Positions 4,781-59,938 are shown, counted from the first letter of the stretch. The stretch: 64,000 bases of DNA from an uncultured Nitratifractor sp. (GCA_947311565.1 CAMZLH010000012.1:3173-67172); one strand, 5' to 3'. The notes: a model not told the origin generated them from the letters alone. Translations and numbers: made by a program.

Positions 4781-4785
4781 AATTA

Positions 4786-5184: not shown

Positions 5185-5529
5185 ATGCAACAATTAGATA
5201 TGAATTCAGAAGAATTTTTAGAAGAGTTAGAGAAGACTAAAAAATTTACAGATAAAGTTTGTAATAATTTTGGATGGGTTTACCACCCAATGGATGATGT
5301 TAATGAAGGTGTTACAATGGGTCTTGCTAGAAACAAGATGCTTTATGGTAAAAGATATTGTCCATGTTTTATGGTAGTAGAGGAGGAGGGTAAATTTAAG
5401 AGTGCTGATAATAGAGTATGTCCATGTAAACCAGCAATCGAAAAAGAGATACCTGAAGAGGGTAAGTGCCACTGTGGAATCTTTTGTACTCCAGAGTATG
5501 TAGAAGAGTATAATAAAGAGAATAACTAG
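5185..5529 (+). CDS. Ferredoxin:thioredoxin reductase catalytic-subunit-like protein
   Basis: CPC..(16)..CPC..(13)..CHC cysteine arrangement (RYCPCF, RVCPCKP, KCHCGIFC) in a 114-aa protein. Confidence 0.65.
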   Translation: MQQLDMNSEEFLEELEKTKKFTDKVCNNFGWVYHPMDDVNEGVTMGLARNKMLYGKRYCPCFMVVEEEGKFKSADNRVCPCKPAIEKEIPEEGKCHCGIFCTPEYVEEYNKENN

Positions 5530-5536
5530 GATTAAT

Positions 5537-6643
5537 ATGACAGAGGTTACAGATGTTGTTGATCTATTTATAAAGCTATTGAGTGCTAAGTCTATTACTC
5601 CAGATGACGCTGGATTAATGGAATTTATAGAGAGCTACTTAGATAATTTTGAAGCAACAAGAATAGATAAAAATGGTGTAAAAAATCTATTTTTAACAAA
5701 AAAATTTGATGATGGAGAGCATTTATGTTTTGCAGGGCATGTCGATGTTGTGCCAGAGGGTGATGGCTGGAGTAGCAGTGCTTTTGTACCTAAGATACAT
5801 AATGGAAAAATATATGCAAGAGGGGCACAAGATATGAAGAGTGGCTTAGCAGCTTTTCTTTATGCTTCTAAAAATATAGATAAGTTTAATGGAAGAGTTT
5901 CTATTCTATTAACATCTGATGAAGAGGGTGATGCTCACTTTGGAACAAAGATAGTTTTAGAATACTTAAAAGAGATTAACCTACTGCCAGATTATGCAAT
6001 TGTTGCAGAGCCAACTTGCGAAAATATATTTGGTGATGCAATAAAAATAGGGAGGAGAGGCTCTAATAATGGTATTGTAAAACTTTTTGGTAAGCAAGGA
6101 CATGCAGCATACCCTGCTAAATCAAAAAATGTAATTAATTTAGTATCTACAATACTACCTAAAATAGCAGGTAAAAACTTAGATAATGGTGATGAATTTT
6201 TTGAGCCAAGTCAGTTTGTAATTACAGATATAAGAGCTGGTATGGAGGTTACTAATGTAACACCTGGGCTCTTAAAATTAATGTTTAATGTTAGAAACTC
6301 TACTGCAACTACACCAGATGATATAAAGAGTTTTGTCGATAAAAACTTTGAAGGTTTAGATTATGAGCTTGAGTTTAAACCTTCAGCAAAACCATTTATG
6401 ACAAACCCAGAGTCTAAAGTTGTTGAAGTTATGAGAAAGTCGATTAAAAAGGTATGTAAAATAGATACTAAACTATCTACTGCTGGTGGAACAAGTGATG
6501 CTAGATTTTTTGGAGAGTATGGTGTAGACACTGTAGAGTTTGGTGTTATAAATGATACGATACATGCACCAAATGAGAGAACATCTATATCTGAAGTAGA
6601 GGCTCTTAAAAATGTATTTAAAAGAGTACTTGAAGAGTTTTAA
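5537..6643 (+). CDS. dapE: Succinyl-diaminopimelate desuccinylase (M20 peptidase)
   Basis: M20 metal-ligand motifs: GHVDVVP, GAQDMKSG, SDEEG, EPT, and a C-terminal HAPNE. Length is 368 aa. Confidence 0.85.
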   Translation: MTEVTDVVDLFIKLLSAKSITPDDAGLMEFIESYLDNFEATRIDKNGVKNLFLTKKFDDGEHLCFAGHVDVVPEGDGWSSSAFVPKIHNGKIYARGAQDMKSGLAAFLYASKNIDKFNGRVSILLTSDEEGDAHFGTKIVLEYLKEINLLPDYAIVAEPTCENIFGDAIKIGRRGSNNGIVKLFGKQGHAAYPAKSKNVINLVSTILPKIAGKNLDNGDEFFEPSQFVITDIRAGMEVTNVTPGLLKLMFNVRNSTATTPDDIKSFVDKNFEGLDYELEFKPSAKPFMTNPESKVVEVMRKSIKKVCKIDTKLSTAGGTSDARFFGEYGVDTVEFGVINDTIHAPNERTSISEVEALKNVFKRVLEEF

Positions 6644-7039
6644 TTGAATCTTCAAGAGTTAATTTTAGCTACATTTTTAGTAGAGGCTTTAGAGGCAGCA
6701 CTACAATATAGAGCAACGCTTAAAGAGTCTTTATTCATACTATATAGCTACTATAACAAAAGTAGTTTTCTTTTCTTTAGTACAAATATAGGGTATATAT
6801 GGTTAATTTATATAGCTTTATCTTATAATCAATTAAATTTTGCTATTATTCTAGCACTACTTTTAAAGAGTCTAGATATTATGACCAAGTTAATTTTAAT
6901 AGATAGACTCTTTGTAAAGCATGATATTGAATATATAGAAGAGCTTACGCCAATACTAAATAAGAAAGCACCATTTTGGTTCTATTTAGTAGGAGTATTT
7001 ACATATCCATATATTATATATATTGCATTTTTAAATTAA
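6644..7039 (+). CDS. Hypothetical small membrane protein
   Basis: The TTG start directly abuts the dapE stop. There are 3-4 hydrophobic segments and no recognisable motif. Confidence 0.4.
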   Translation: MNLQELILATFLVEALEAALQYRATLKESLFILYSYYNKSSFLFFSTNIGYIWLIYIALSYNQLNFAIILALLLKSLDIMTKLILIDRLFVKHDIEYIEELTPILNKKAPFWFYLVGVFTYPYIIYIAFLN

Positions 7040-7048
7040 AGGATTTAC

Positions 7049-7711
7049 TTGGAGTTAGTAATAGGCAATAGCCCTCTTCTAGAGGCTAATGGAATATCTA
7101 AAAGTTTTGATTATCAGCTATTTCAGGATTTATCAATTAGATTATACTCTAAGCAGAGTGTATCTGTAATGGGTAGAAGTGGTACTGGCAAGTCTACACT
7201 TCTACATATTCTCTCTACACTTCTTAAACCAGATAGTGGAAGTGTTAAAATTTTAGATAAAGATATATATAATTTAAGTAGTGCAGAGATTGAGCGTATT
7301 AGAAGAGATAATATTGGAATTATATTTCAATCTCACTATCTATTTAAAGGGATGAGTGTACTTGAGAATATAGAATCTGCTACTCTTTTGTCTAATACAG
7401 ATATAGATAGAGAACTTTTCAAAATGTTAGAGATAGAAGATATTATTAATAAAAAAGTAGGAGATATATCTGGAGGGCAACAGCAAAGGGTATCTATAGC
7501 TAGGGTTTTAAGTAAAAAACCCAAAATAATATTTGCAGATGAACCAACAGGTAATTTAGATAGAGCTACAGCAGATTTAGTTATGGAGGCATTAAACAAC
7601 TATATTATAGATAATAAAGCCGCACTATTTTTAGTTACACATGACGATGAGATTGCAAATAAGACACAAAAACTATATCAACTAGAGAGTAAAAAATTAA
7701 ATATAAGATAA
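7049..7711 (+). CDS. ABC transporter ATP-binding protein (LolD/FtsE-like size class)
   Basis: Walker A GRSGTGKST, ABC signature ISGGQQQRVSIAR, Walker B IIFADEPT and an H-loop THD. Confidence 0.85.
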   Translation: MELVIGNSPLLEANGISKSFDYQLFQDLSIRLYSKQSVSVMGRSGTGKSTLLHILSTLLKPDSGSVKILDKDIYNLSSAEIERIRRDNIGIIFQSHYLFKGMSVLENIESATLLSNTDIDRELFKMLEIEDIINKKVGDISGGQQQRVSIARVLSKKPKIIFADEPTGNLDRATADLVMEALNNYIIDNKAALFLVTHDDEIANKTQKLYQLESKKLNIR

Positions 7712-7841
7712 ATTTTTTTATTATATGATATAATATTAAACTTAGTTTATAGAGTGGATATGAATATAAAGTGTTAGATAAAATGAGCGCTTATCCATAA
7801 TATTATTAAAAATTAGGTAAACATTTAGAGAAGGTGTAATT

Positions 7842-8393
7842 ATGAAAAAATCAGTATTTTATCTCTTAACTATTCTAGAGATTTTTTTGTTCACTGGGTG
7901 TATGTCGATTAATAATCCTTTTCCTATTAATCAATCTAGTGAGGTCAAAGTAGGATATTTATCTATTAAAAGTATAAATATGAACTTATCTCAGCAGATG
8001 CCAAATAGTAAAAGAGTTGGTAGAAATGAGACAAATATTGTATCTATAACTCTCTTTCCTAGCAAAGATAGTAAACATCTAGTAGTAGAGTTAGAGTTAA
8101 TATTTAAAAGTTTTGAGATACCAGAAGGATTACCTGCTATAGCAAGAACTAAAGCATTGTTAGATTATAATAGTAAGAGTAGAGAGTTTAAATTGAGTAA
8201 AATTATGCCTATAGAGGTTAGATATTTAAGAGAATCTCTACTAGAGTATATTACACCTAAGCAGAAGAAGTTAATATCTAGAATGTTAACTCAACAGTTA
8301 AATAGCTTTGCAATACATAAATCTAAAAAATCATTAGGTACTATAAAAGAGTATAGTATAAAAGATGACACTATAAAGTTTATTTTTAATTAA
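7842..8393 (+). CDS. Hypothetical lipoprotein
   Basis: Signal peptide with lipobox LFTGC. No recognisable domain. Confidence 0.5.
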   Translation: MKKSVFYLLTILEIFLFTGCMSINNPFPINQSSEVKVGYLSIKSINMNLSQQMPNSKRVGRNETNIVSITLFPSKDSKHLVVELELIFKSFEIPEGLPAIARTKALLDYNSKSREFKLSKIMPIEVRYLRESLLEYITPKQKKLISRMLTQQLNSFAIHKSKKSLGTIKEYSIKDDTIKFIFN

Positions 8394-8482
8394 AGTTAAA
8401 ATATTAACCTGAGTTCGACGCTGTATCATAGTTATAGCTTTATAAGGTTAATTTTTGGCTAAATTAAATTTTTGAATTACCT

Positions 8483-8625
8483 GTGGGGAGTCCCAATGGC
8501 GTTAAGTTAAGCATTTTTATCTAATTTTATAAATTATTTTCAGATATTAAAGTCCCTACGTTAGGACAGGTTATATTTAGAAAAATTTATTATTTCCTTA
8601 ACTTAACGTCATTGGTGGGTAGTCC
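8483..8625. repeat. MITE-like element: 18-bp terminal inverted repeats (17/18 match) enclosing about 85 bp, flanked by an 11-bp direct repeat (10/11 match)
   Basis: Left half is gtggggagtcc|caatggcgttaagttaag (8483-8511). Right half is cttaacttaacgtcattg|gtgggtagtcc (8597-8625). Confidence 0.45.
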
Positions 8626-8934
8626 TATAAATTTGATATAAAAAATTTTAGCTCATTTTGACTTCTGTGGCTATTAGCTTATCCTTTGTGTTAAGCTAAT
8701 TTAAACATCATAAACTCTAATCTAACTACATATTTTATCAGAAAATATTATATTATCTAATTTAACTAGACAACTAGATATTTAAAACTATAAATTTTAA
8801 TATGCCTTCTATAGTATTTAGAAAATTTTCTATATTGAACTACTTATAATTAGAGTTAATAATAGTAATTTCATAACATTTTTATTAAAATTAGGATATA
8901 AATAGACTATTATTTTTAATTTTTAAGGAATTAC

Positions 8935-10185
8935 ATGAGTTACGAAATAGAGAAATTTGATCCAGAAATTTTTGAAGCTATAAATAGTGAATTAACAAGA
9001 CAGAATGATCATTTAGAGATGATTGCTAGTGAAAACTTTACTCTTCCTGCTGTTATGGAAGCTATGGGAAGTGTGTTTACAAATAAATATGCAGAAGGGT
9101 ATCCAAATAAAAGGTACTATGGTGGCTGTGAAAATGCTGATACAGTAGAGCAGATTGCTATAGATAGAGTATGTGAACTTTTTAATTGTAAATTTGCAAA
9201 TGTACAGCCTCACTCTGGTAGTCAAGCTAATGGTGCAGTATATGCAGCACTTCTTAAACCATACGATAAAATTTTAGGTATGGATTTAAGTCATGGTGGT
9301 CACTTAACACATGGTTCAAAGCCAAGTTTTTCTGGTAAGAATTATCAAAGCTTTACTTATGGTGTTGAGCTAGATGGTAGAATTAACTATGATAAAGTTA
9401 TGGAGATTGCAAAAATAACTAAACCAAAAATTATAGTTTGTGGTGCTAGTGCTTATGCTAGAGAGATAGACTTTAAGAAATTTAGAGATATAGCAGATGA
9501 AGTTGGAGCAATTTTATTTGCAGATGTTGCTCATATTGCAGGACTTGTAGTTGCAGATGAGCATATGAGTCCATTCCCTTATGCAGATGTTGTTACAACT
9601 ACAACACATAAAACACTTGCAGGTCCTAGAGGTGGAGCAATTATGACTAATGATGAGGATATTGCTAAAAAGATAAATTCTGCAATCTTCCCAGGTCTTC
9701 AAGGTGGACCTTTAGTTCATGTAATTGCAGCTAAAGCAGTTGGGTTTAAATATAATCTTTCATCAGAGTGGAAAGATTATGCTAAGAGTGTAAAAGCTAA
9801 TGCTTCTAAATTAGCAGAAGTTTTAGTGGCTCGTGGATATGATGTAGTAAGTGGTGGTACAGACAATCATCTTGTTTTAGTTAGTTTTTTAAATAAAGAG
9901 TTTAGTGGAAAAGATGCAGATGCTGCTTTAGGAAATGCTGGTATTACTGTAAATAAAAATACAGTTCCTGGCGAGAATAGAAGCCCATTTGTAACAAGTG
10001 GTATTAGAGTTGGATCACCTGCACTAACAAGTAGAGGTATGGGAGTAGCAGAGTTTGAAAAAATAGCAAATTGGATTGCTGATATTTTAGATGATATTAA
10101 TAATAGTGAGGTTCAATTAAAAATAAAAGCAGAGATAAAAGAGTTAACAAGTAACTTTATTATCTATGATAAAGCAATCTATTAA
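8935..10185 (+). CDS. glyA: Serine hydroxymethyltransferase
   Basis: Full-length SHMT pattern including the PLP-lysine motif [14 protein letters not shown]. Confidence 0.95.
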
Positions 10186-48345: not shown

Positions 48346-49278
48346 TTAAAGTGTAGATATTTTACTTGCATCTATCATAGAGTCGATACTATTTTCTATA
48401 TTTATGGCTAAGGCATCAATATTATAACCTCCCTCTAAAAATAGTATTTTAGGTATATTGGGATTCTGTGATAGTATTATATTCATCATTTTTTTTATTC
48501 CATTAAAAGTTATATCTAACATAGCTAATGGGTCACTCTCATGTAGATCATATCCCGCAGATATTAATATAATATCTGGGTTAAATGTTTTAATTAAAGG
48601 TGGTAACTCTTCTCTATAAGCCTCTATCAACTCTTTATCTGTAGAGTTTGGCATGAGTGGATAGTTAAATGTATATCCCTTTGCATCTTTAGCTCCTGTT
48701 TCGCTTGGGTCTCCACTGCCTGGATATGTAAAGGCTTGGTGTGTACTAAAGTAAAAAACAGAACTATCACTATAGAAAGTATCTTGTGTTCCATTTCCAT
48801 GGTGAACATCAAAATCTATAATAAATACTCGTTTATAACCAATAGATTGGGCATATTTAGCAGAAATAGCAATATTATTAAAGAGACAAAACCCCATAGA
48901 TTTGTTAGGTGTTGCATGGTGACCTGGTGGCCTAACAAGACAAAAAGCTAATCTGTATTTCCCCAAGTTTATTAAGTTTAATGCCTTTATACCAGCACCG
49001 ACTGCATATTTAGCTGCTATAAAGCTATCTTTAGATGTTGGAGTATCCATATCTAAATAGTCACTATTTTTAGATGCCTCTTCTACTCTATTATAGTGTT
49101 TGATTGTATGAACAGTTAATATTTGCTCTTTAGATGCCTCAATAGAAGATAAAATATCTATTTTATCACCAAACTTATTTAACTTTTTATAGATAGCTAC
49201 TAACCTGCTAATTGATTCAGGATGATCAATTGTATAGTGTTGTAGATATATATCATCTATTATAATTAGTGGTTTCAT
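48346..49278 (-). CDS. Histone-deacetylase-family (arginase fold) deacetylase, AcuC/acetylpolyamine-amidohydrolase-like
   Basis: RPPGHHA, FDVHHGNGTQ and GGY motifs. I prefer the start MKPLIIID at 49278, which forms an ATGA overlap with the upstream stop, over 49332 in the ORF track. Confidence 0.85.
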   Translation of the reverse strand: MKPLIIIDDIYLQHYTIDHPESISRLVAIYKKLNKFGDKIDILSSIEASKEQILTVHTIKHYNRVEEASKNSDYLDMDTPTSKDSFIAAKYAVGAGIKALNLINLGKYRLAFCLVRPPGHHATPNKSMGFCLFNNIAISAKYAQSIGYKRVFIIDFDVHHGNGTQDTFYSDSSVFYFSTHQAFTYPGSGDPSETGAKDAKGYTFNYPLMPNSTDKELIEAYREELPPLIKTFNPDIILISAGYDLHESDPLAMLDITFNGIKKMMNIILSQNPNIPKILFLEGGYNIDALAINIENSIDSMIDASKISTL

Positions 49279-50144
49279 TCGAAATCTACTAAATCTATAA
49301 TTTTTATCCAATCTTTTAATCCCTCTCTCCATATGTAACTATTAGGTTTAAGTTTTGAGTTATCAATAAGATTAGTAATATCTTTTTTGCTATATGCTCC
49401 ATCTACTTGAGAGTTATTAATAATAAAGTATTTTTTAATATTCTCATCTTTAGTACTAACTATACTCTCTCTTCCTTTTTTTTCAATTCTAAATATACTT
49501 TTTCTTATATCTATAGATGTAGCATACAGACCAATTTCACTTATCCTACTATTACAAGAGTTAACTAAAAATTTATTTAACTCTATCTTATTTTGTAAGA
49601 GTTCAAAGAGTGGTATTGTTCTGTTGGCAATAATATCTGGAAGTATTGCGAGAGATAGTCTCTCTAAATATTTAACTATCCTTTTATTAGATAATTTTAT
49701 ACCTTTTCTTAATATATGAGTTAAAAATTTATAAGGATTAGATATAGATATCTCTATACTCCCTTCCATATTAACTCTTATTATATTATTTTTTAAATCT
49801 TTTATTAAAAACGGAGATTTGTTTGACAAACGTAAATTAAAACTATCTAGCTTTATATAGTAAATATCAGCATTAAATACACCATCTCTAATACTCTGCC
49901 AATTTAACTCTTTAGCTATATTTGGTAGGGTATCTATATTTAGTATATGTTCACCTTTATCTATAATATCATATATTTCATGGTTTAAATTGATAATAAG
50001 AGCATAATTGTTAGCTATTTTGACTCTACAATTATATATAATATCTCTACCATCTATAGGAACTTTGTAGATAATTTTATCTAAATTTCCATTATGGTTA
50101 ATTGTATTTATAAAATCACTAAATAACCAGCTAAATATTTTCAT
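49275..50144 (-). CDS. SPFH-like (COG4260/YdjI-type) protein with a C-terminal GYF_2-like domain
   Basis: The N-terminal roughly 230 aa resemble the YdjI-type pattern (from memory). The C-terminus ..KLKPNSYIWREGLKDWIKIIDL fits the GYF_2 W..G...W pattern. Confidence 0.5.
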   Translation of the reverse strand: MKIFSWLFSDFINTINHNGNLDKIIYKVPIDGRDIIYNCRVKIANNYALIINLNHEIYDIIDKGEHILNIDTLPNIAKELNWQSIRDGVFNADIYYIKLDSFNLRLSNKSPFLIKDLKNNIIRVNMEGSIEISISNPYKFLTHILRKGIKLSNKRIVKYLERLSLAILPDIIANRTIPLFELLQNKIELNKFLVNSCNSRISEIGLYATSIDIRKSIFRIEKKGRESIVSTKDENIKKYFIINNSQVDGAYSKKDITNLIDNSKLKPNSYIWREGLKDWIKIIDLVDFE

Positions 50145-50171
50145 TAAATTCCCTTGCTTATCTCCTATAAA

Positions 50172-51302
50172 TTATATAGTTACTTTTTCGCCTTGTGCTA
50201 GTGCTTCTTGTTTTGCCTTGGTAGCAAGAAGAGCCTCCTTTAGTGCTATCTCTGTACTCTCTAGCTCTACTTCTGCTTTTTCTCTTGCCTCTTTACCATT
50301 TTGTGCAATTTTTATAGAGTCATTAAGAGTATCTATAAGTGTTTGATTTGCTTTTTTAATACTATCAATATCAAATACACCTCTCTCCATCTGCTCTCTT
50401 ACCTCTTTATTCGCTTCTCGTAATCCTTCGGCACTCTGCTCTAGTAGATCATTAGTTAAATCATTTGCATTTTTTATAGCTTTTGCAGCATCATGACTTC
50501 TAAATATTGTAACAGTTTGCGCTAACTGATTACGCCATAAAGGAATAGTATTTACTAAAGTAGAGCTAATCTTATTAATTAGAGATTTATCATTCTCTTG
50601 TATTAGTCTAATGCTTGGTAGTGCCTGCATAGCAACTTGACGAGATAGTTTTAAATCGTGTACTCTACGCTCTAGATCATCTCTAAAGCCTCTTATCTCT
50701 TTTAGATTTTGTATATCTATCATCTCTCCAGCTTCTGTCTTAACTTCAAACTCTGGAATAATACTACTCTCTAACTCTTTTAACTTTATATCTCCAGCTT
50801 TTATATATAGCTCTAGTTGTCTAAAGTAGTCTAAGTTTGCATCATATAGTTTATCTAAAGAAACTATATCTGTTTGAAGTTTAGCTTTATGCTTCTCTAA
50901 GCTATTAGATATTGCATCTATCTGCTCTTTTACATCTTCATACTTTTGAATAAATTTAGTAATAGGCTTTGTAAAACCAACCAGTTTTTGCCACCAAGCT
51001 AATTTATTGTTTGGATTAAACTCCTCCATATCAAAGCCACGAAGAGTTGCTACCATCTCGTTTAATAGTGCTCCACTTTTTCCAGTATCTTTATTCTTTA
51101 CTCCATCTAGCATTCTATTTGATATATCATCTAGTCTCTCTTGTGCCTTAGAACCAAAGTATATTACTGAATTTCTATTTGAATAATCTATCTCTTCTAA
51201 AGCCTCTTTTAGCTTATCTTCCTCTTGTGGTATTGGCGCTGGAGGATTTGCCTCTTGGTATTTAACTGTTGCTTCAATTAAATCTCTAACTTTTTTATCC
51301 AT
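50172..51302 (-). CDS. telA: TelA/YaaN-family toxic-anion-resistance protein
   Basis: 376 aa, all-helical, with a family-typical layout (..YFGSKAQ.., ..L.K.Y.......L..YI.AG..). It sits adjacent to an XpaC-like gene, as in the Bacillus xpaC-yaaN pair. Confidence 0.7.
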   Translation of the reverse strand: MDKKVRDLIEATVKYQEANPPAPIPQEEDKLKEALEEIDYSNRNSVIYFGSKAQERLDDISNRMLDGVKNKDTGKSGALLNEMVATLRGFDMEEFNPNNKLAWWQKLVGFTKPITKFIQKYEDVKEQIDAISNSLEKHKAKLQTDIVSLDKLYDANLDYFRQLELYIKAGDIKLKELESSIIPEFEVKTEAGEMIDIQNLKEIRGFRDDLERRVHDLKLSRQVAMQALPSIRLIQENDKSLINKISSTLVNTIPLWRNQLAQTVTIFRSHDAAKAIKNANDLTNDLLEQSAEGLREANKEVREQMERGVFDIDSIKKANQTLIDTLNDSIKIAQNGKEAREKAEVELESTEIALKEALLATKAKQEALAQGEKVTI

Positions 51303-51316
51303 AATTATCCTTTATT

Positions 51317-52141
51317 TTAATTTTTAAGTTGCTCTTTTAGTGCATCTATTTGTACATCTAAATCAAATATCTCGTTAGATTTTAATCTCTCTAATTCACT
51401 ATCAAAACGAGTTGTAGCGTCTTTTAAAAGATTAATCAATCTTAATCTATATTCACTATCTAATAGCTCTTTATCAATAGAGTTATATTGTGCAATAACA
51501 TCTTTAACACCATCTAAATATACAACCATAAATTTTCTAACTATAGTTATATCTTTAGGATCATCTTCTATCGTTTTTAGTATCTCGTGTGCTTTTGCTG
51601 TAGTACTTTTAATTGCACTCTTTAGCTCGATATCCTCTATTTTCTCTTGCTCTTTATCGATATAGTTCAATTTATCTTTCGCCTTACTTAATGAGTCTAA
51701 AATTTTTTGATAGTTTACTCCCTTATCTTTAGGTAGTTTATCAATAGTTGGGTCTTTACCATAATATAAAAAAGCTCCTACTCCACCAATTATAGAGCTA
51801 AATATAGAATTTATAGGGTTAATATTGGTTGTTAATATAGAGATAAAGATTAGTGCAATAACTAAAGATATTGATCCAATTAGCTTATATTTAATTTTTG
51901 GTGCTATAGCTAAGTTTGCACTATTATATATAAATTCATTGTTTAGACCTCTATCTATAAGTTTTGCAGATCCAACTAATAGAGCAAAACCTACTAATTT
52001 AGTTAAAAAAGGTAAATAGTTACTATTAAAGAGCTCCAGAATTGTAGATACAAACATTGGTAATAAAAAGATATAAATAAGAGTAGCTCTTTTTGCTTTG
52101 GGTTTAAATATAGCTTGTTTCATCTTTTTAGCTTTAGCCAT
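51317..52141 (-). CDS. xpaC: XpaC-like (5-bromo-4-chloroindolyl phosphate hydrolysis protein family) membrane protein
   Basis: Hydrophobic N-terminal half (multiple TM segments) followed by a helical cytoplasmic domain. Classic pairing with telA/yaaN. Confidence 0.55.
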   Translation of the reverse strand: MAKAKKMKQAIFKPKAKRATLIYIFLLPMFVSTILELFNSNYLPFLTKLVGFALLVGSAKLIDRGLNNEFIYNSANLAIAPKIKYKLIGSISLVIALIFISILTTNINPINSIFSSIIGGVGAFLYYGKDPTIDKLPKDKGVNYQKILDSLSKAKDKLNYIDKEQEKIEDIELKSAIKSTTAKAHEILKTIEDDPKDITIVRKFMVVYLDGVKDVIAQYNSIDKELLDSEYRLRLINLLKDATTRFDSELERLKSNEIFDLDVQIDALKEQLKN

Positions 52142-52215
52142 TAAAAACTCCCACTAACTACTGTACTTAATGCATATATCATAAATAAGATACCAAAAAT
52201 TTTATAGTAATTCAT
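52141..52215 (-). CDS. 24-codon hydrophobic micro-ORF translationally coupled to xpaC
   Basis: MNYYKIFGILFMIYALSTVVSGSF*. AAGGA lies 6 nt upstream of the ATG. Its TAA shares one nucleotide with the xpaC ATG (TAATG). Confidence 0.4.
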   Translation of the reverse strand: MNYYKIFGILFMIYALSTVVSGSF

Positions 52216-52299
52216 TTTTTTCCTTTGCACATTTAATTCTATTACTGTATTATATCAAAAAAATATATACTATTATAAAAATATTTACAGGAGCAAAGT

Positions 52300-53571
52300 T
52301 TGAACCCGATAGTAAAGAGATTTTTAGAGATTATAAACATATCTAGATGTAGCTTTAAAACTAAGAAAATGAGAGATTATATTATAGAGTTCTCAAAGAG
52401 TAGAGGATACAAAATTACTATAGATAGTTTTGATAATATTTTAGTTTTTAAAGATAATCCAAAATTATCCCTACAAGCACACTATGATATGGTATGTGTT
52501 GGAGATGCACCAAATATAGAGCCAGTAATAGAAGGAGATACACTTAGAGCTAAAAACTCTTCACTAGGCGCAGATAATGGCATAGCAATTGCTATGATGC
52601 TAGAGTTGATAGATAGAGGCGTAGATGCAGAGTATCTATTTACAAATGATGAAGAGGTCGGTTTAATAGGTGCAAAAAATTTAGAGCTAAATATAAAGAG
52701 TAAATATATTTTAAATTTAGATAGCGAAGATGAAGCAGAAGTCTATATTGGTTGTGCTGGTGGTGCAGATATTGTTGCGACTATAGAAGATGAGCTTATA
52801 GAAGTTGATGGTAAATGCTATGAAGTTTCTATAAAAGGATTACCAGGTGGACACTCTGGTGTAGATATTGATAAAGCTATTCCTAATGCAATTAAAGAGT
52901 TATTTACTTTTATAAATAGTTTAGATGAGGTCTATATATCAGCAATATATGCAGGAGAGCGTAGAAACTCTATACCATCAAATGCAGTAGCTATTATTGT
53001 TACTACTAGCAAGATAGTATCAAATAAAATGGTAGAGATAAGAGAGCTAAACGAGTCACCAAAAGTATTTAAAAAGAGTCAAGCTATTTTAGATTTAGTA
53101 GATATATTTCCTCATGGAGTTGTAGATGATAATAGAGAGTTTAAGATACCAAATATTAGTATTAATTTAGCACAAATTAACTCAGTAAAGAGTAATAAAC
53201 TAGAGTTAATTGCAACAACAAGAGCAATGGATTCAGAAGGTTTAGAGAGCATAAATAGTGAAACAATAAGTATATTAAATAGTTTTAATTTTATCACAAA
53301 AATAGAAGACAACTACCCAGCATGGAGACCAGATATAAATAGCTTTACTAAAATTGTTAAAAAAGTAGTAGAGAAAGAGTTTGGCAAGTGCGAACTAAAA
53401 GCAATACATGCAGGACTAGAGTGTGGAGTACTATCTAAAAAGTTTTCTAATATAGATTTTGTATCAATAGGACCAAATATTAGATATCCACACTCTAAAA
53501 GAGAGTATGTAGAGATAAACTCTGTAACTAAGACCTTTAAAGTTGTAGAAGAGCTAATATCTATACTTTAG
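52300..53571 (+). CDS. M20-family aminoacyl-histidine dipeptidase-like (PepD-like)
   Basis: QAHYDMV, GADNG, NDEEVG, GGHSG and a C-terminal HAGLECG motif. Confidence 0.75.
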   Translation: MNPIVKRFLEIINISRCSFKTKKMRDYIIEFSKSRGYKITIDSFDNILVFKDNPKLSLQAHYDMVCVGDAPNIEPVIEGDTLRAKNSSLGADNGIAIAMMLELIDRGVDAEYLFTNDEEVGLIGAKNLELNIKSKYILNLDSEDEAEVYIGCAGGADIVATIEDELIEVDGKCYEVSIKGLPGGHSGVDIDKAIPNAIKELFTFINSLDEVYISAIYAGERRNSIPSNAVAIIVTTSKIVSNKMVEIRELNESPKVFKKSQAILDLVDIFPHGVVDDNREFKIPNISINLAQINSVKSNKLELIATTRAMDSEGLESINSETISILNSFNFITKIEDNYPAWRPDINSFTKIVKKVVEKEFGKCELKAIHAGLECGVLSKKFSNIDFVSIGPNIRYPHSKREYVEINSVTKTFKVVEELISIL

Positions 53572-53715
53572 AGTTGGCTCTTTTAAGAGATAAGTATATA
53601 TGTATGCCAAAAGTTCTATCTTTGTAAGAAGAAAAATATTGCATAAAAAGCTTTATTTTCAAGGAAGTTTTTTGTTATTAGAAAATAATCCTTTTAATTT
53701 CTAATATTATTACAT

Positions 53716-53735
53716 ACTGTTACTTACTGTTACTT
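53716..53735 (+). repeat. Perfect tandem 10-mer (actgttactt x2) next to a 9-bp hairpin upstream of hamA
   Basis: actgttactt occurs at 53716-53725 and again at 53726-53735. The hairpin is agtaagaca/tgtcttact at 53745-53769. Confidence 0.5.
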
Positions 53736-53905
53736 ATACCAATTAGTAAGACAAAAGGTGTGTCTTACTATTATACTATTATTAATAGAATTGGTGTATA
53801 ATATCTTCTAATAAATAGTTAGTAGAGCATTGAAATATAAATTTGTATTAAGACTATTTAATTCAAATTTAGCTAAAATTAATAAAATAATTAAGGAAGT
53901 TTATA

Positions 53906-54793
53906 TTGAGGGAATCATTAAAAAAATTAATTGATAAAACAATTATTTATAAATATTCACTTCCCAATAATACAGATAAAATCGACCAAGTAAATTTAAG
54001 TAACCACAAAGATGATTGCTATGATTACAGTAATGATAATGACTTAATTAAACTTATCTATAATTCAATAATTGAATACTCTTTTAATGAATTTGATTTA
54101 ACTAAAAAAGACTATTTACCTATTGCCTTACAAACTAAAATTAGATACGATGAACGTGACGAGCCATTAACAAAATTAAAATATGGATTTTTTGGTGAAG
54201 TTTTACTTTATTCATTTTTACATCATATTTATAGAGCCAATCCACTTATATCAAGGGGATATTTTTTTAATCCTTTAGAAAACTCAGAAACAAAAGGTTA
54301 TGATTCATATCATTTAATTGAAAATGATGGTGTTGTTGAATTATGGTTTGGTGAAGTAAAATTTAGAGATACATTATATAGCGGTGCAAAAAGTGCTATT
54401 GATGGCTTAGATAAAGCCTTTACCGATGATTATTTAAAAAATAATATTGTAGCTATGAATAATTTTAGAAATAATTTTGCTATAAAAGATAGTAAAATTG
54501 AAGAAATTTTAAACAAATGGGATGGCACACCTATTCAAATAATTAATGAAGTAAAAAAGCACAATATGACTTTGGTTTATCCTATTTTGCTAGTTTATCC
54601 AGATAGCAATCCCAACTACCATGAAAGAATTAAAAAAGCCGTAGATAAAATAAATGAAAAATTTGCACTAAAAACATACAATTTATCAATTAATTATAAA
54701 CTATTTTTTATATTTTTACCAATAAGTGAAGTTAAAAAAGTCAAACAGGAGGTACTTAAATGGATAGAATTAAAGAAGCCTCTATTGTCGTAA
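53906..54793 (+). CDS. hamA: HamA-like DUF1837 protein with a PD-(D/E)xK-type motif (Hachiman effector candidate)
   Basis: YGFFGEVLLYSFL, then GYD(133)SYHL..LWFGE(150)VK(152)F. 295 aa. The TTG start is preceded by AAGGAAG. A Ski2-like helicase follows immediately and overlaps it, which is the Hachiman gene pair architecture. Confidence 0.6.
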   Translation: MRESLKKLIDKTIIYKYSLPNNTDKIDQVNLSNHKDDCYDYSNDNDLIKLIYNSIIEYSFNEFDLTKKDYLPIALQTKIRYDERDEPLTKLKYGFFGEVLLYSFLHHIYRANPLISRGYFFNPLENSETKGYDSYHLIENDGVVELWFGEVKFRDTLYSGAKSAIDGLDKAFTDDYLKNNIVAMNNFRNNFAIKDSKIEEILNKWDGTPIQIINEVKKHNMTLVYPILLVYPDSNPNYHERIKKAVDKINEKFALKTYNLSINYKLFFIFLPISEVKKVKQEVLKWIELKKPLLS

Positions 54794-57063
54794 AAGCATT
54801 AAATAAATATTTTCGAGAGGAAATACCTAATTATGAATTTATTACTATAGTTTGTGGATATTTTGATAAGATTAAAGATATTGAATTAACCCCATCAGAT
54901 TTAAAGTTTTTAAAATATATTTCAAATATAGCAGGAATCCCACATTATTATGATTTACTTTCTGATAAATTTAATCATAATTTAGAGTTTAACGAATATG
55001 ATTTAAATACTTTATCATCAATAATTTATGAAAGTACCCTTCATATTGATAAAGATATCAAAATACATAAATATCAAAAAGAAGTTTTAAACCTTTTTGA
55101 TATTGATAAACAAAATAGATTTTTTTTATCTGCTAGTACTTCATTTGGTAAAACATTTCTTATTTATGAAATAATTAAAAAAATGCAATATAAAAATATT
55201 GTTCTTATTTTTCCAACTATTGCTTTATTATCAGAAAACTATGAAAAATTACTAACTAATGACTTATGTAGTGATTTTCAAGAAAATTTCACTATTCATA
55301 CATTAAGTGATGTAGAAAATATCGGTGAGAATAATATTTTCATATATACACCTGAAAGATTCTTATCGTTTATGGATAAGAGCATTGATATTAGTATTGA
55401 TTTTGTTTTTATAGATGAAATATATAAAATTGATAACGAGTATCTTATTGATAGTGTAAATAAGGAAAATGAAAGGGACACGGCTTATAGAGTTGCTCTA
55501 CACAATCTCTTACTTAACAGTAATGATATTTTATTGGTCGGACCGTATATTAACTTTCCTAATAGAAACAATGAGGAAAAGAATCAGTCATTTAATAACT
55601 TTTTAGATAAAAACAATTTTGAATTAGTCGATTATAATAAATTTGAAATTGTTAATAAAAGTTTTAATATTATTAGAAATGGTGGTAAACAAGTAATTGA
55701 TGATAAGTTGATAATAGATTTATCAGGATACAGCAGTAAAAAAACTGGTGAGAGACTAGGTAAAATTATTAAAGATATTAGAAATATTGATGAAAATACA
55801 ATAGTTTATACTAGTGGACCGTCAAGAGCTGAAACTAAAACTAAAGAAATTATTAATTTCAATACTTCTAATGAAGAAAATAGTACCAGACTTAATGAAC
55901 TAATAGAACATTTAGAAAATACTTTTCGATTACCTGATTGGAGTATAATCTTAGGATTAAAAAATAAAATTGGTATTCATCATGGGCTAGTTCCTAAATA
56001 TATTCAAAAAGAAATCATTAACTTATTTAATAATGGCGATATTAATGTTCTAATATCAACTACTACTATTACGGAAGGTGTAAATACATCTGCAAAAAAT
56101 CTTCTTGTATTAAGTGCAAATAAAGGAAATAAACCTTTAAAAACTTTTGATGCAAAAAATATTGCTGGAAGAGCAGGAAGGTTCTTGTATCATTATAGTG
56201 GCAGAGTTTTAATAATTAATAAAGAATTCAAAGAAATAATAGATGGTTCAGATGATGAAATTAAACACAAAAATTATGATGAAAGTTCAATTAAAGATGA
56301 AATTGATTATTTTATAACAGATGATGAGTTTTTAACTAATAATGATAAGTTAAAGAAAGAAGAAGTTATAAAACAATATAGAGAAAAAAATATACCAGAT
56401 GAAATAATGAATATGTATAAGGTAATTTCTTATAGTGATAAAATCGATGTGTATGACAATTTAAAAATATTATCTATCAATTATCCTGCTAACTACAAAG
56501 CTATTCAAGAGTTTATAAGAAAAATTGCTTATAACTTAACTCTTGATTATAATGGATTTAATAATTTTTTATGGGTTATTAGACCAATTATTAAAAATGA
56601 ACAACTACAAAGACTATCAAGACCAAATGAAGATGGTTCAGCATCAATTTTAACTCATCTTTTATATTTTTATTTAAAAGATGGTTTTATTGGTTCGGTT
56701 AGATACAAGATTGACAAACAAAGTAAATCAACAGATGAAGCAATAAGGGAGTCATCACAGTTTGTATATAATGTACTAAAATATCAGTTAGTAAAATATC
56801 TTGGTGTTTTTAACTTGATGTATAAATTTTTAGAATCTCAAAGATTAAATAAATCTCTTGATGATATTACTGGAATAGATAAATTACTTGTAAAGTTAGA
56901 ATATAATTCAACCTCAGAAAAAGGAAAATTAGCAAGTGATTATGGAGTACCAAATAAAATAATAGAATATTATGATAACGAAGAAGATAGAGATATAAAA
57001 GCAAGTTTTGATGATTATGAAATGAATAAATTTGAACAAATTGAAAATATTATAAATGGATGA
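54760..57063 (+). CDS. hamB: HamB-like superfamily-2 (Ski2/Hel308-like) helicase
   Basis: Walker A STSFGKT (55147-55155), motif II DEIY (55414-55425), TTTITEGVN and AGRAGRF. AGGAGG lies 8 nt upstream of the ATG. The gene overlaps hamA by 34 nt. Confidence 0.65.
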   Translation: MDRIKEASIVVKALNKYFREEIPNYEFITIVCGYFDKIKDIELTPSDLKFLKYISNIAGIPHYYDLLSDKFNHNLEFNEYDLNTLSSIIYESTLHIDKDIKIHKYQKEVLNLFDIDKQNRFFLSASTSFGKTFLIYEIIKKMQYKNIVLIFPTIALLSENYEKLLTNDLCSDFQENFTIHTLSDVENIGENNIFIYTPERFLSFMDKSIDISIDFVFIDEIYKIDNEYLIDSVNKENERDTAYRVALHNLLLNSNDILLVGPYINFPNRNNEEKNQSFNNFLDKNNFELVDYNKFEIVNKSFNIIRNGGKQVIDDKLIIDLSGYSSKKTGERLGKIIKDIRNIDENTIVYTSGPSRAETKTKEIINFNTSNEENSTRLNELIEHLENTFRLPDWSIILGLKNKIGIHHGLVPKYIQKEIINLFNNGDINVLISTTTITEGVNTSAKNLLVLSANKGNKPLKTFDAKNIAGRAGRFLYHYSGRVLIINKEFKEIIDGSDDEIKHKNYDESSIKDEIDYFITDDEFLTNNDKLKKEEVIKQYREKNIPDEIMNMYKVISYSDKIDVYDNLKILSINYPANYKAIQEFIRKIAYNLTLDYNGFNNFLWVIRPIIKNEQLQRLSRPNEDGSASILTHLLYFYLKDGFIGSVRYKIDKQSKSTDEAIRESSQFVYNVLKYQLVKYLGVFNLMYKFLESQRLNKSLDDITGIDKLLVKLEYNSTSEKGKLASDYGVPNKIIEYYDNEEDRDIKASFDDYEMNKFEQIENIING

Positions 57064-57073
57064 ATTTTGAGTC

Positions 57074-58879
57074 ATGATACAAGGAAAAATGATTAATAAA
57101 TATAATGTAGTAGAATTATTTGCAGGTGCTGGAGGATTAGCACTAGGTTTAGAACAAGCAGGATTTAAAACAAAAGCAGTTTTAGAGATTGATAAGTGGG
57201 CTTGTGAAACTTTGAAAAAAAATAGACCAAATTGGAATATTATAAAGGGTGATATTACTAAAATATCTCAAATTGGAATTAAACAATATTTAAAAGATAA
57301 TGAAGAGATAGATTTACTATCAGGTGGATATCCATGTCAATCTTTTAGTTATGCTGGAAATAGACTAGGTATCGATGATACTAGAGGAACTTTATTTTAT
57401 GATTTTGCATTGATTTTGGATGAGTTAAAACCAAAAATGTTTTTTGCTGAAAATGTAAAGGGCTTAGTTACTCATGATAAAGGTAAAACATTTAAAACTA
57501 TGATAAATGTATTTGAAGATGTTGGTTATGATGTAACCTATAAAGTTTTGAATGCTCTTGATTATAGTGTAGCTCAAAAAAGGCAAAGAGTTGTTATTGT
57601 AGGGATAAGAAAAGATATAAAAGAAAAAATAGGAGAAGAGTTTAAATTTCCAAAACCACATACTAAAAAACTAACTTTAAAAGATGTCTTAAAAAATGTT
57701 CCAAAGTCTGAATGCGCAACATACAATGAGGCTAAAAAAGCAGTATTAAAACATGTTAAGCCCGGTGGATGTTGGAGGGATTTACCTGATGATATTGCAA
57801 GGGAATATATGAAAACTACTTATTTTATGGGTGGTGGAAGAACGGGAATAGCAAGACGATTATCTTGGGATGAACCAGGTCTTACTGTTTTGTGTTCTCC
57901 AGCTCAAAAACAAACAGAAAGATGTCATCCAGATGAGCTTAGACCATTTAGTGTAAGGGAAAATGCAAGAATTCAATCATTCCCGGATGATTGGGTATTT
58001 GAAGGACCTATTACACAACAATACAAACAAATTGGTAATGCAGTACCAGTCAATTTAGCAAAAGAAGTTGGATTGTCAATTACTAATTATTTAGATAAAT
58101 TAAAGGAGAAAGAATATATGAGAAACTACAATTTAAGCTTTATAAGAGATGAAGACTTATTTAATCATGTAAAAGAAACTATACTAAAATATAGGTTCAA
58201 AATAACATTAAAAGAGTTTAATAAAAATTTAATAGACCCTATTAAATTGACATTTGATTCCAAAGTTTACGGTAAAACTATTGAAGAAATAATTGAATCT
58301 GAATCAATTAGACAAATGGATAAAACAAATAGTAATAACATAGGATATTTTCAGCAAAATATTTTTAAATATATTTATCATAAAGATACAAAAAAAACAA
58401 ACTGGACTGTTCCTCAACAAGGTTTTGATGTTGTGAACGAAATAGAAAAGATTTATGTAGAGATGAAAAATAAACATAATACTATGAACTCATCTTCATC
58501 ACAAAAAACATATATGAGAATGTCTAGTAAAATAAATAATGAACCAGAGGCAATATGTATGCTTGTTGAAGTAATAGCAAAAAAATCACAAAATATACCT
58601 TGGCAAATTTCATTAGATGGTGAATCTATTTCTCATGATAAAATAAGAAGAGTTTCTATTGATAAATTTTATGAGTTAGTAACTGGAGAAAAAGAAGGCT
58701 TTAAACAGTTAGTGGAAGCTTTGCCAAAAGTTATGGATGATGTATTGGAAGATATCCAACAAAATGGCATAGAAAACAGTGTTTTTCAAGAACTTCAAGA
58801 AATAGATAGTAATATGTTGAAAAGTTTATATTTATTATCATTTAAAAGATATGAAGGTTTTGACAGTATTGATATATAA
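57074..58879 (+). CDS. Fusion protein: cytosine-5 DNA methyltransferase (aa 1 to about 345) plus a PD-(D/E)xK nuclease-like C-terminal domain (aa about 349-601, Eco47II-like from memory)
   Basis: m5C MTase motifs in order: ELFAGAGG, GGYPCQSFS (Cys88), ENV, QRQRV, RPFSVRENARIQSFPDDW, GNAVP. The frame then continues without a stop into a domain with GFD(452)-x10-E(463)MK(465)NKHNT. AAGGAG (58103-58108) and an in-frame ATG (58118) sit at the junction. Confidence 0.8.
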   Translation: MIQGKMINKYNVVELFAGAGGLALGLEQAGFKTKAVLEIDKWACETLKKNRPNWNIIKGDITKISQIGIKQYLKDNEEIDLLSGGYPCQSFSYAGNRLGIDDTRGTLFYDFALILDELKPKMFFAENVKGLVTHDKGKTFKTMINVFEDVGYDVTYKVLNALDYSVAQKRQRVVIVGIRKDIKEKIGEEFKFPKPHTKKLTLKDVLKNVPKSECATYNEAKKAVLKHVKPGGCWRDLPDDIAREYMKTTYFMGGGRTGIARRLSWDEPGLTVLCSPAQKQTERCHPDELRPFSVRENARIQSFPDDWVFEGPITQQYKQIGNAVPVNLAKEVGLSITNYLDKLKEKEYMRNYNLSFIRDEDLFNHVKETILKYRFKITLKEFNKNLIDPIKLTFDSKVYGKTIEEIIESESIRQMDKTNSNNIGYFQQNIFKYIYHKDTKKTNWTVPQQGFDVVNEIEKIYVEMKNKHNTMNSSSSQKTYMRMSSKINNEPEAICMLVEVIAKKSQNIPWQISLDGESISHDKIRRVSIDKFYELVTGEKEGFKQLVEALPKVMDDVLEDIQQNGIENSVFQELQEIDSNMLKSLYLLSFKRYEGFDSIDI

Positions 58880-59080
58880 TCTACTAACAAAACCTTGGAA
58901 CTAATAAATTTTCTATCGAAAATTTACAGTTCAAGTCAACCGTTAGGAAATAATAAAATGTTAACACAATAAGAATTTGAAAAAATTAGAGAAAAATATG
59001 GTGATTGATTATGCAAAACCTTGAAGAGAAACAAGTGAAAAGTGCTATTTTCGAGCTTTTTAATCTATTAAAAAAATATT

Positions 59081-59938
59081 TTAATCATTTACTAATTTAA
59101 CTATTTTTTTATCTTTTAATATATATCCATATGGCGATATTTTGTAGGGTAGTTCACTATACCCTTTTTTAGAGATAGTAGATGCAACTTTTAATGCGAC
59201 TTTATCTTTGCTATCTACAATCATTACAGCATCTCTTGCAGGAATAAATATTACAATATCTCCTTCTATTTTAATGCCTTTATCTATCAAAAACTTTTTA
59301 TTAACAATTATAGATGCTTCGTAATTATGTTTTGCTGATAAAATATATACTCCTTTGCTATTTTTAATATCTTTATGAATAATTGTAGCACCAATATTGT
59401 TATAATATTTAGTTAAATTTTCAACTGCTATCTCTTTTATATTTTCAAGTTTTAGCCTCTTGATATCGATATTTGTAACATATTTCATACTTTCAGGAGT
59501 GTCGAATACATAAAGTAGATAAAGATTGTCTGAAATTTTACGATGATAAATATCGTTAACTTTATTTAACTTTTTAAATGCTAACTTAAGCTCTTGTATA
59601 TACTCTTTAGATTTAACTACGGGCAGTATTTCATCTTTCTTGCCACTTTTAAATAGATTTTTACTATTTTTTAAAGAGTAAGTATGTCTTGAAAAGATAT
59701 TATTAAAGCTATCTTTACTTAATGTATACTCTTTATAGGCATTATCTAAATATATAATGTCATCATCGCTATTTATGCATAACTCTCCACATAGTTTAAA
59801 GGATTGTTTTGTATATTTTTTAGTTAAATTATCTTTAAAAAGTATAGTAAACTCTTGTTTAGATAGAGTATTTGCAGATAGAGTAGTTAAAGTAAATATT
59901 AGTATGAAAAATAGTTTTATGTATATGTTTTTTTTCAT
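59081..59938 (-). CDS. Hypothetical secreted protein (weak DUF1444-like resemblance)
   Basis: Signal peptide. No catalytic motif recognised. Confidence 0.45.
   Translation of the reverse strand: MKKNIYIKLFFILIFTLTTLSANTLSKQEFTILFKDNLTKKYTKQSFKLCGELCINSDDDIIYLDNAYKEYTLSKDSFNNIFSRHTYSLKNSKNLFKSGKKDEILPVVKSKEYIQELKLAFKKLNKVNDIYHRKISDNLYLLYVFDTPESMKYVTNIDIKRLKLENIKEIAVENLTKYYNNIGATIIHKDIKNSKGVYILSAKHNYEASIIVNKKFLIDKGIKIEGDIVIFIPARDAVMIVDSKDKVALKVASTISKKGYSELPYKISPYGYILKDKKIVKLVND

Follow-up and report, generated by a model that had tools for sequence, protein, structure and literature searches.

A compact cassette carrying a type I Hachiman pair and a fused Eco47II-type restriction-modification gene in an uncultured Nitratifractor sp., and the recurrent linkage of its HamAB clade to m5C restriction-modification modules

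A 64,000-nt stretch from an uncultured Nitratifractor sp. (GCA_947311565.1 CAMZLH010000012.1:3173-67172; the whole stretch analysed, hereafter the window) carries three adjacent defence genes: the Hachiman genes hamA and hamB, and a gene (gene 3) encoding a 5-methylcytosine (m5C) DNA methyltransferase fused to an endonuclease. Taking the evidence together, we give a probability of about 70% to the reading that this locus is a compact mobile cassette of 5 kb, in which two mechanistically autonomous anti-phage systems are placed in one operon and are co-transcribed and co-transferred. Open reading frame (ORF) calling placed the three genes on the same strand in the order hamA (53906-54793), hamB (54760-57063) and gene 3 (57074-58879), with a 34-nt overlap between hamA and hamB and a 10-nt gap between hamB and gene 3, which reproduced the tightly packed arrangement described in a first-pass annotation made from the sequence alone. 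That annotation had drawn the island from 53572 to 59080; its genes were recovered, but its start marks only the end of the upstream pepD-like gene, as 53572-53905 (334 nt) is intergenic sequence. Of the arrangements it had proposed, two stacked defence systems fits best, with the two being kept together by selection.

The first two genes were assigned to Hachiman type I. The hamA gene (53906..54793, + strand) starts with a TTG codon, with a ribosome-binding site (RBS), AAGGAAG, at 53893-53899, and its product of 295 amino acids (aa), a predicted DUF1837 PD-(D/E)xK effector nuclease, matched the Pfam family HamA/DUF1837 (PF08878; E=7.5e-26) and, over its full length (residues 1-293), the PADLOC model HamA1 (PDLC00167; E=7e-121). 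Residues D133, E150 and K152, which are invariant among 17 members of the clade, match the D-E(X)K motif reported for HamA (PMC12278908); a search of HamA against PDB sequences gave no match at E<=1. The hamB gene (54760..57063, + strand) encodes a Ski2-like superfamily 2 (SF2) helicase of 767 aa, the putative sensor, which matched PADLOC HamB1 (PDLC00191) with 1024 bits over its full length (residues 1-766) and contains the Pfam domains DEAD, Helicase_C and ResIII. Its invariant motifs include Walker A (G130-K131-T132), DE (219-220) and motif VI (G470-R-A-G-R474), and its closest solved relative is AbpB (8zue_B, E=2e-31), with HamB 8vx9_B matching as well. A HamB search against plasmids returned only five distant and uninformative matches from Bacillus. 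The Pfam and PADLOC hidden Markov models thus bear out the initial recognition of a DUF1837-like HamA and a Ski2-like HamB as a Hachiman pair. Hachiman type II (HamA-HamB-HamC) was rejected, as the HamA2 and HamB2 models scored far lower and the third gene encodes a restriction-modification (R-M) enzyme. Like the solved type I examples (HamAB of Escherichia coli ECOR31, 8vx9, and AbpAB, 8zue), the pair combines a D-ExK DUF1837 nuclease with a Ski2-like helicase, encoded by overlapping genes in the order hamA-hamB; unlike them, it has an R-M gene 10 nt downstream in the same apparent operon, and its proteins are distant from the solved ones, only the helicase core of HamB being alignable.

Gene 3 is a single ORF of 601 aa, and the deposited record calls an identical 601-aa product. 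In its N-terminal m5C DNA methyltransferase domain (57074..58108, + strand; residues 1-345; hereafter M), residues 10-336 matched Pfam DNA_methylase (PF00145; E=9e-93) and a match to NCBIfam dcm was also obtained. The conserved m5C motifs I, IV (PCQ), VI (ENV), VIII and X are all present, and the residues of FAGxGG (F16, A17, G18, G20, G21), P87-C88-Q89, E126-N127-V128, Q168-x-R170-x-R172 and G321-N-A-V-P325 are invariant in 32 homologues. The C-terminal domain (58118..58879, + strand; residues 349-601; hereafter R) belongs to the Eco47II family of PD-(D/E)xK endonucleases: residues 354-558 matched Pfam RE_Eco47II (PF09553; E=2e-81) over profile positions 1-201 of 202, and the triad D452, E463 and K465 is invariant in 32 fused homologues and 9 stand-alone R proteins. 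Steczkiewicz et al. (PMC3424549) place the family in the PD-(D/E)XK superfamily. An AlphaFold2 model of gene 3 (mean predicted local distance difference test score 84.8, predicted template modelling score 0.58) comprised two confident domains and a low-confidence linker at residues 346-349, and in a Foldseek search of the whole model the top match was M.HaeIII (1dct, E=5e-24), followed by M.HhaI, with the matches confined to the methyltransferase domain.

As both domains are full-length and retain their catalytic motifs, gene 3 is predicted to be a complete and self-contained Type II R-M system of the Eco47II family in a single polypeptide (the Type IIC form) rather than a Hachiman accessory. 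The methyltransferase-nuclease fusion recognized in the first-pass annotation therefore stands, whereas a role of gene 3 as an extra Hachiman component is not borne out, since its nearest fused relatives (proteins P0001 and P0004) live alone, as single-gene insertions between housekeeping genes that have no hamAB. With Eco47II/Sau96I-type R-M systems the gene shares an m5C methyltransferase and a PF09553 endonuclease, both full-length and with invariant motifs, but those systems are usually encoded by two genes. When the methyltransferase domain was searched with PADLOC, the best models were MTase_II, and the DrmMII and DruM models also matched. DISARM and Druantia resemble the locus in having an m5C methyltransferase adjoining a helicase, but both were rejected, because the DrmMII and DruM matches reflect general m5C homology, no DrmA/B/C or DruE was present, and the neighbouring genes are housekeeping genes.

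The joining of the two domains can be traced to a purine-rich tract at the M/R junction (58096..58120, + strand), which was aligned with loci L082 (~3300-3325), L168 (~5225-5245), L172 (~9030-9050), L165 and L167 (L and P numbers denote loci and proteins throughout). The tract has the form ...AAATTAAA[A/G]..GA[A/G]GAA..AAAATG, and its length sets the frame: in the window, L165 and L167 the tracts are of equal length, in frame, and fused, whereas the tract is 1 nt shorter in L168 and L172 and 1 nt longer in L082, all three of which have separate M and R genes. These comparisons point to a length change of +/-1 nt in the purine-rich junction as the probable origin of the fusion. The tract of the window is interrupted (AAAGGAGAAAGAATATATG) and has no homopolymer longer than 3 nt; some relatives carry A7-A8 runs at the junction, which might permit slippage. 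The ancestral R start persists within the fused gene, as an internal RBS, AAGGAG (58103-58108), and, nine bases later, an ATG (58118-58120; Met349), so that this start may still be used and free R may also be made. At the protein level the junction reads ...KLKEKEY-M-RNYNLSF, a layout found in other fused forms.

Fused proteins are not confined to the window. Proteins with both domains formed more than 100 clusters among the matches listed, from Campylobacterota, Bacillota, Fusobacteriota and others, and several recurred (P0117 on 111 contigs, P0090 on 30 and P0001 in two independent assemblies). Among the best 62 species-representative loci with both parts, 61 had them as separate, adjacent or overlapping genes and one was fused, a count that was confirmed when the ORFs of three loci were listed again. 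Since the solitary fused proteins P0001 (80%) and P0004 (79%) are less similar to gene 3 than the hamAB-linked methyltransferases are, the fusion in the window appears to have arisen within the hamAB-linked lineage. A comparable enzyme is RM.Eco29kI, in which an m5C methyltransferase and its cognate Type II endonuclease were joined from overlapping genes (PMC3039593); this engineered hybrid kept both activities, with phage protection about 100-fold weaker (PMC3039593). However, RM.Eco29kI has the order R-M and was made in the laboratory, whereas the order in the window is M-R and the fusion is natural and recurrent in nature.

As for expression, transcription would most likely begin in the conserved leader of about 90 nt before hamA and read through all three genes. 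A promoter-like sequence, TTCAAA-18-AATAAT (53862-53891, + strand), was found in this leader by a consensus scan, and a terminator scan detected none between the genes, including the hamB/gene 3 gap. A single transcription unit is thus probable, given the 10-nt gap, the absence of a terminator and a methyltransferase that has no regulatory helix-turn-helix (HTH) domain of its own, and the one apparent transcription unit noted earlier from gene spacing is sound as an apparent unit. An N-terminal HTH is present on Eco47II-family methyltransferase relatives that lead an operon or stand apart (L037, L150 and L047), whereas gene 3 and its lineage have none. The missing HTH and a methyltransferase start 8-10 nt after hamB fit a dependence of gene 3 on the hamAB promoter, which we regard as the probable arrangement.

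The block from hamA to the end of R is conserved as a unit. A single blastn high-scoring segment pair ran from hamA through R (53854-53856 to 58895-58900) at 80-81% identity to L168-L174, and 54808-58937 of the window aligned at 85.7% to L082, a metagenome contig that begins inside hamB. The methyltransferases closest to gene 3 are unfused and lie directly after hamA-hamB: P0243, in the 90% cluster of gene 3, occurs on 7 contigs (L168-L171), P0086 is from Sulfurimonas sp. GCA_035514795.1 (L172-L174), and L082 has the same arrangement. In all of these loci the order is hamA-hamB-M-R(Eco47II), with hamB-M gaps of 8-10 nt and M/R overlaps of 4-14 nt, and among these relatives the protein identities to the window are 71% for HamA, 77-87% for HamB, 84-90% for M and 82-83% for R. 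Their surroundings are different, L172 being flanked by a ModE-like regulator and a periplasmic binding protein, unlike the pepD-like and DUF1444 genes of the window. The same block, at 80-86% nucleotide identity and with unrelated flanks, thus indicates horizontal movement of the cassette as a unit, and the horizontal acquisition suggested from the sequence alone is upheld by the presence of this block (53818/53855-58900/58937) in unrelated contexts of Sulfurimonas-like contigs. Beyond the cassette, L168 continues into a larger defence island (6212-9776), which contains an OLD-family ATPase-TOPRIM nuclease and another m5C R-M, whose endonuclease is of the R-HinP1I type. In L082, the closest relative, the cassette is followed (4269-4836) by a small antitoxin-like ORF and a MazF/PemK-like toxin ORF, which recalls the PezAT-Hachiman association (PMC13064477).

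The boundaries of the block were placed by homology. On the left, a conserved cassette leader (53818..53905, + strand) could be aligned in a three-way alignment with L168 and L172 from GTTAGTA onwards, the sequences upstream being unrelated, and on the right a conserved 3' tail (58880..58937, + strand) shows homology to about 58895-58900 in L168-L174 and to 58937 in L082. The right breakpoint coincides with the motif CAACCGTTAG (58937..58946, + strand) and the left one with TAGTTAGTAG (53816-53825), a degenerate copy of it. The same 10-mer occurs at the left breakpoint of L168-L170 (919-928 in L168) and twice around hamAB in L094, where the two copies (3061-3070 and 7986-7995) flank the hamAB block; the motif was also located in L090 (6061) and L172 (4714). 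In L090, L168 and L172 the motif (core AACCGTTAG) precedes hamA by about 75-93 nt, and in these other lineages it recurs in the orientation of hamAB. In 552 kb of dereplicated hamAB loci AACCGTTAG was found 8 times on the + strand and once on the - strand, against 1 and 2 occurrences in 1.16 Mb of control loci, a count reached by 0.7% of permuted 9-mers in a post hoc test. The motif may serve in recombination or in regulation.

The insertion site was compared with the closest pepD-like relatives (L161-L164; 59-66% identity), in which the upstream synteny of deacetylase (HDAC), GYF, TelA, halogen-hydrolase-like and pepD genes (48346-53571 in the window) is kept. Downstream of pepD these four loci have other genes, with no hamAB, no DUF1444 gene and no precise empty site. 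As the genes after pepD differ in each lineage, the position at which the cassette now sits appears to be a recurrent break in synteny. An integrase- or tRNA-associated genomic island was rejected, because the locus has no recombinase neighbour (none was seen among the ORFs of 40-62 kb), no tRNA target (a scan of the window for tRNA and tmRNA found none) and no convincing long flanking repeat, the repeat search around the island having found no long direct or inverted repeats and only a short GTTAG-type motif.

The relationship between hamAB and R-M was examined from both sides. The gene-3 family is present on at least 587 GTDB species-representative contigs, and 80 loci from species-representative genomes were examined. 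Of these, 75 had no hamAB, and five carried hamA and hamB beside R-M, in the order M-R-hamA-hamB with a 10-nt gap between R and hamA (L037 and L044), in the order hamA-hamB-M-R (L047 and L054), or with hamAB divergent from M-R (L078). In a set anchored on HamB (80 metagenome-contig loci; alignment A2), an m5C methyltransferase lay beside hamAB in 34 loci. The A2 loci, the window and the five gene-3-anchored loci were dereplicated at 80% HamB identity into 46 clusters, 14 of which had an m5C methyltransferase within about 1.5 kb of hamAB; among the HamB-anchored clusters flanked by 3 kb or more on each side, half (9/18) had m5C R-M within about 1.5 kb. All fourteen m5C methyltransferase genes were at most 2.5 kb from hamAB, and the 200 kb of more distal flank sampled contained none (binomial p=1.4e-5). 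The association looks different from its two sides: most members of the widespread R-M family occur independently, whereas the HamAB clade is very often linked to R-M. For the idea, raised in the first-pass annotation, that the third gene belongs functionally with hamAB, this cuts both ways, as the distribution of gene 3 is largely independent and its homologues do co-occur with hamAB, repeatedly and in different arrangements. A similar pattern was seen in IMG/VR, where in two of four close full-length HamB loci a methyltransferase gene lay no more than 1 kb upstream of hamA, in one case arranged as M-R(Eco47II)-hamAB, and a third had a weaker methyltransferase match about 3 kb upstream. A systematic link between Hachiman and m5C R-M was not reported in any paper retrieved by a full-text literature search, which misses some journals.

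The linked modules are themselves diverse. Eco47II-type partners were found in the window, L082, L150, L037, L047 and L078, EcoO109I-type partners in L097, L111, L117, L122, L133 and L157, and a SinI-type partner in L096, while the partner in L155 is an NgoFVII_C-like candidate (E=5e-4, below the Pfam threshold). The prototype sites of the first three families are GGNCC for Eco47II, RGGNCCY for EcoO109I and GGWCC for SinI (REBASE). A profile-profile comparison of the Eco47II and EcoO109I endonucleases gave a probability of 1.4%, with only the catalytic core aligned, and homology beyond the PD-(D/E)xK superfamily is thus not claimed. At least four gene orders were observed (M-R-hamAB, hamAB-M-R, hamAB with convergent R/M, and divergent), and the linked loci are spread over several branches of the HamB tree. 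In L078, HamB shares only about 23% identity with the others, whereas M and its counterpart in L047 are 71% identical. Distances between HamB and M proteins were weakly correlated (Mantel r=0.34, a value matched or exceeded in 127 of 5000 permutations) and the two trees disagreed, so that a single ancient cassette was rejected as the sole explanation. Together, the varied gene orders, the scattered HamB branches and the weak Mantel correlation suggest that the pairing was assembled more than once.

Other neighbours were also recorded in the HamAB clade. Members that have no m5C module are accompanied by genes typical of defence islands or mobile elements, namely AAA_21 and AAA_15 ATPases, GmrSD, DarT, Abi_2, integrases and resolvases. 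In L095 (1913-12465) hamAB lies inside a type I R-M operon (hsdM, hsdS, two small ORFs, hamA, hamB and hsdR); in L104 hsdS ends 3 nt before hamA and a DUF262/GmrSD-like gene follows hamB; and in L159 a DpnII-type R-M, with two methyltransferases and an endonuclease, is located directly upstream of hamA. Within a human-gut group of hamAB loci, a small HTH (C-protein-like) ORF precedes the EcoO109I-type R-M, and in L117 and L122 a Vsr-like very-short-patch repair endonuclease is also found upstream of the linked R-M (both features within L117 3440-3916; L122 3235-3912 and 3938-4171; L157 3798-4025). The HTH and Vsr-like ORFs beside these gut modules suggest that the modules keep their own accessory and control genes.

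In the published Hachiman model, HamB restrains HamA on intact DNA, and nicked DNA and DNA ends trigger the ATPase and nuclease activities of HamAB; HamB unwinds substrates with 3' overhangs, 5' overhangs or blunt ends, the released HamA degrades DNA without sequence preference and independently of modification, and DNA-damaging drugs switch the system on in the absence of phage (PMC12278908). If the window proteins behave likewise, HamB would hold HamA in check on intact DNA and release it at damaged, nicked or ended DNA, while the methyltransferase domain of gene 3 would mark host cytosines and the PD-(D/E)xK domain would cut unmarked incoming DNA. Restriction would then be a sequence-specific first line and Hachiman a sequence-independent, abortive second line, and phages that escape restriction by being methylated or poor in sites would still face Hachiman. 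The autonomy of the R-M system is suggested by the solitary P0001 and P0004 and by the 75 family loci that have no hamAB, and that of HamAB by the many clade clusters with no nearby methyltransferase. Joint transfer, joint expression and joint selection as a layered defence would be what keeps the pair linked. A precedent for such pairing, and for a transfer route that needs no recombinase, is a 7.2-kb island of Hachiman and a type II RM in Streptococcus thermophilus DGCC8849, which moved by natural transformation and gave far better protection than plasmid-borne Hachiman alone (PMC12322248). That island resembles the present locus in being a small Hachiman and type II R-M island that moved as a unit; it differs in that its authors treat it as two systems, and no claim of a linkage recurring across taxa was found.

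An alternative is a functional relay, in which breaks made by the endonuclease in unmethylated phage DNA would load HamB and unleash HamA, so that DNA is first cut and then shredded. Its attraction lies in the known triggering of the HamAB ATPase and nuclease by nicked DNA and ends (PMC12278908), and it would account for the presence of m5C R-M beside hamAB in 9 of the 18 evaluable clusters and 14 of the 46 overall, for the use of at least four gene orders and four endonuclease families (Eco47II, EcoO109I, SinI and NgoFVII-like), for linked loci in several HamB branches, with L078 and L047 pointing to independent assembly, for the like pattern on IMG/VR contigs, and for the superiority of the S. 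thermophilus island over Hachiman alone (PMC12322248). However, about half of the evaluable clade lacks an R-M neighbour, and published assays show Hachiman working by itself; any cellular R-M would supply breaks in trans, so adjacency is not needed for synergy; the comparison of a chromosomal S. thermophilus island with plasmid-borne Hachiman cannot separate additive from synergistic effects; and the adjacency figures are for Hachiman loci alone. Because synergy requires no adjacency and half of the clade has no neighbouring R-M, we regard the relay as possible but rather unlikely. The broader proposal receives the same tentative rating, namely that this HamAB clade has repeatedly and independently been wired to m5C R-M, mostly of families with GGNCC-type prototypes, because restriction breaks activate HamB, with the fusion and the lost regulator marking the R-M as subordinate to the hamAB promoter. 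A less probable reading is that the apparent fusion comes from a frame error in assembly or sequencing, or from a recent inactivating mutation, and that the true locus is the four-gene hamA-hamB-M-R. Separate M and R genes are indeed the rule in the closest hamAB-linked relatives and in the species-representative loci, but no run of a single base at the junction in the window exceeds 3 nt, which speaks against a misread, the record as deposited has the identical product, fused forms of like junction layout are common and reproducible (P0117, P0090 and P0001), and every catalytic residue is intact.

By analogy, the R-M might also act as a selfish stabilizer, an addiction element that keeps the costly abortive-infection genes hamAB through post-segregational killing. 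Pez-Ham of Streptococcus, in which a type II toxin-antitoxin (TA) module joined to Hachiman tunes the fitness cost (PMC13064477), offers a parallel, as do the MazEF-like pair just after the cassette in L082 and a PIN-type pair after hamAB in L094, and the variety of linked R-M families would suit a situation in which being an R-M in general is what matters. Pez-Ham likewise combines a Hachiman clade with a linked accessory module that is dispensable for defence, but its partner is the PezAT TA pair, shown to tune fitness cost, whereas the partner in the window is an R-M. Such stabilization, which does not explain why the partners are mostly m5C and GGNCC-type rather than any R-M, and which is compatible with two autonomous systems rather than exclusive of them, seems to us distinctly improbable. 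Least probable by far is the coupling entertained in the first-pass annotation, in which HamAB would read the self mark of the methyltransferase and the three genes would form one methylation-dependent system. The tight operon structure and the recurrent nearby m5C methyltransferase might be taken in its favour; however, nearly every methyltransferase examined that is adjacent to hamAB adjoins a clear cognate endonuclease gene (L155 being the weakest case), so that an ordinary R-M pair accounts for it, members of the same HamAB clade with no nearby methyltransferase are common, published HamA cleavage is independent of sequence and modification (PMC12278908), and HamA and HamB of the window have no extra domain relative to the PADLOC models. 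We therefore found no support for methylation status feeding the helicase-nuclease.

Two autonomous systems in one cassette thus remains our preferred reading, and several observations weigh against it. The linkage is much tighter and more recurrent than that of a loose defence island, which leaves room for functional coupling. The fused and separate forms differ by one nucleotide, and a single-read error at the junction is possible. The window contains 29 GGNCC sites, against 32.9 +/- 5.1 expected from shuffles, so this candidate site is not avoided, and the sequence contains no sign of enzyme activity or of GGNCC specificity. Promoter-like sites (41, against 45.5 +/- 5.9 in shuffles) are uninformative in such AT-rich DNA, and the promoter in the leader is thus a putative one. 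As a side observation, GGWCC makes up 28 of the 29 GGNCC sites, the remaining one being GGGCC, a skew of the kind that AT-richness predicts.

The surroundings of the cassette are those of an ordinary chromosome. On the left lies an M20-family dipeptidase (pepD-like) gene (52300-53571) and on the right, on the minus strand, a gene for a DUF1444 protein with a signal-like N-terminus (59081-59938), as identified by domain searches; these correspond to the pepD-like gene and the secreted protein of the first-pass annotation. The other genes at this end of the window are housekeeping genes (RNase Y, FtsY, RadA, deacetylase, TelA and HemE), and an Rfam scan of the window at the gathering score found no family. 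A tandem repeat of TTACTTACTG (x2.7; 53710-53736) is located in the spacer that separates pepD from the cassette leader and that is not conserved. The island has a G+C content of 25.3%, compared with 30.1% for the whole window, and is the lowest in G+C of all 5.5-kb windows (mean 29.9%, standard deviation 2.3%). The DUF1444 flank gene has 24% G+C, the methyltransferase part of gene 3 has 31%, and 500-nt windows within the island reach 34%, while G+C at third codon positions differs only slightly (12.5-16% in island genes and 15.5-28% in neighbours). The contrast of 18-27% with 32-38% first reported from spot counts was therefore right in direction and overstated in size; it is real but modest, and fits a donor of similar composition.

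Taken singly, the parts of this locus are routine: catalogues already contain Hachiman type I as well as Eco47II-type R-M, and an annotation pipeline would list them as two systems. Less routine are a conserved hamAB-M-R operon cassette that moves as a unit between genomic sites in Campylobacterota, the immediate and repeatedly re-created adjacency of one HamAB clade to m5C R-M across phyla, and a natural toggle between two-gene and fused (Type IIC) m5C R-M through +/-1 nt in a purine tract. If restriction breaks do activate HamB, the cassette would offer a specific mechanism, open to testing, by which first-line and abortive defence act in synergy, and would explain early activation of Hachiman in infection. 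If they do not, it would still illustrate neatly how defence modules are stacked and could serve in practice as a unit for engineering phage resistance.

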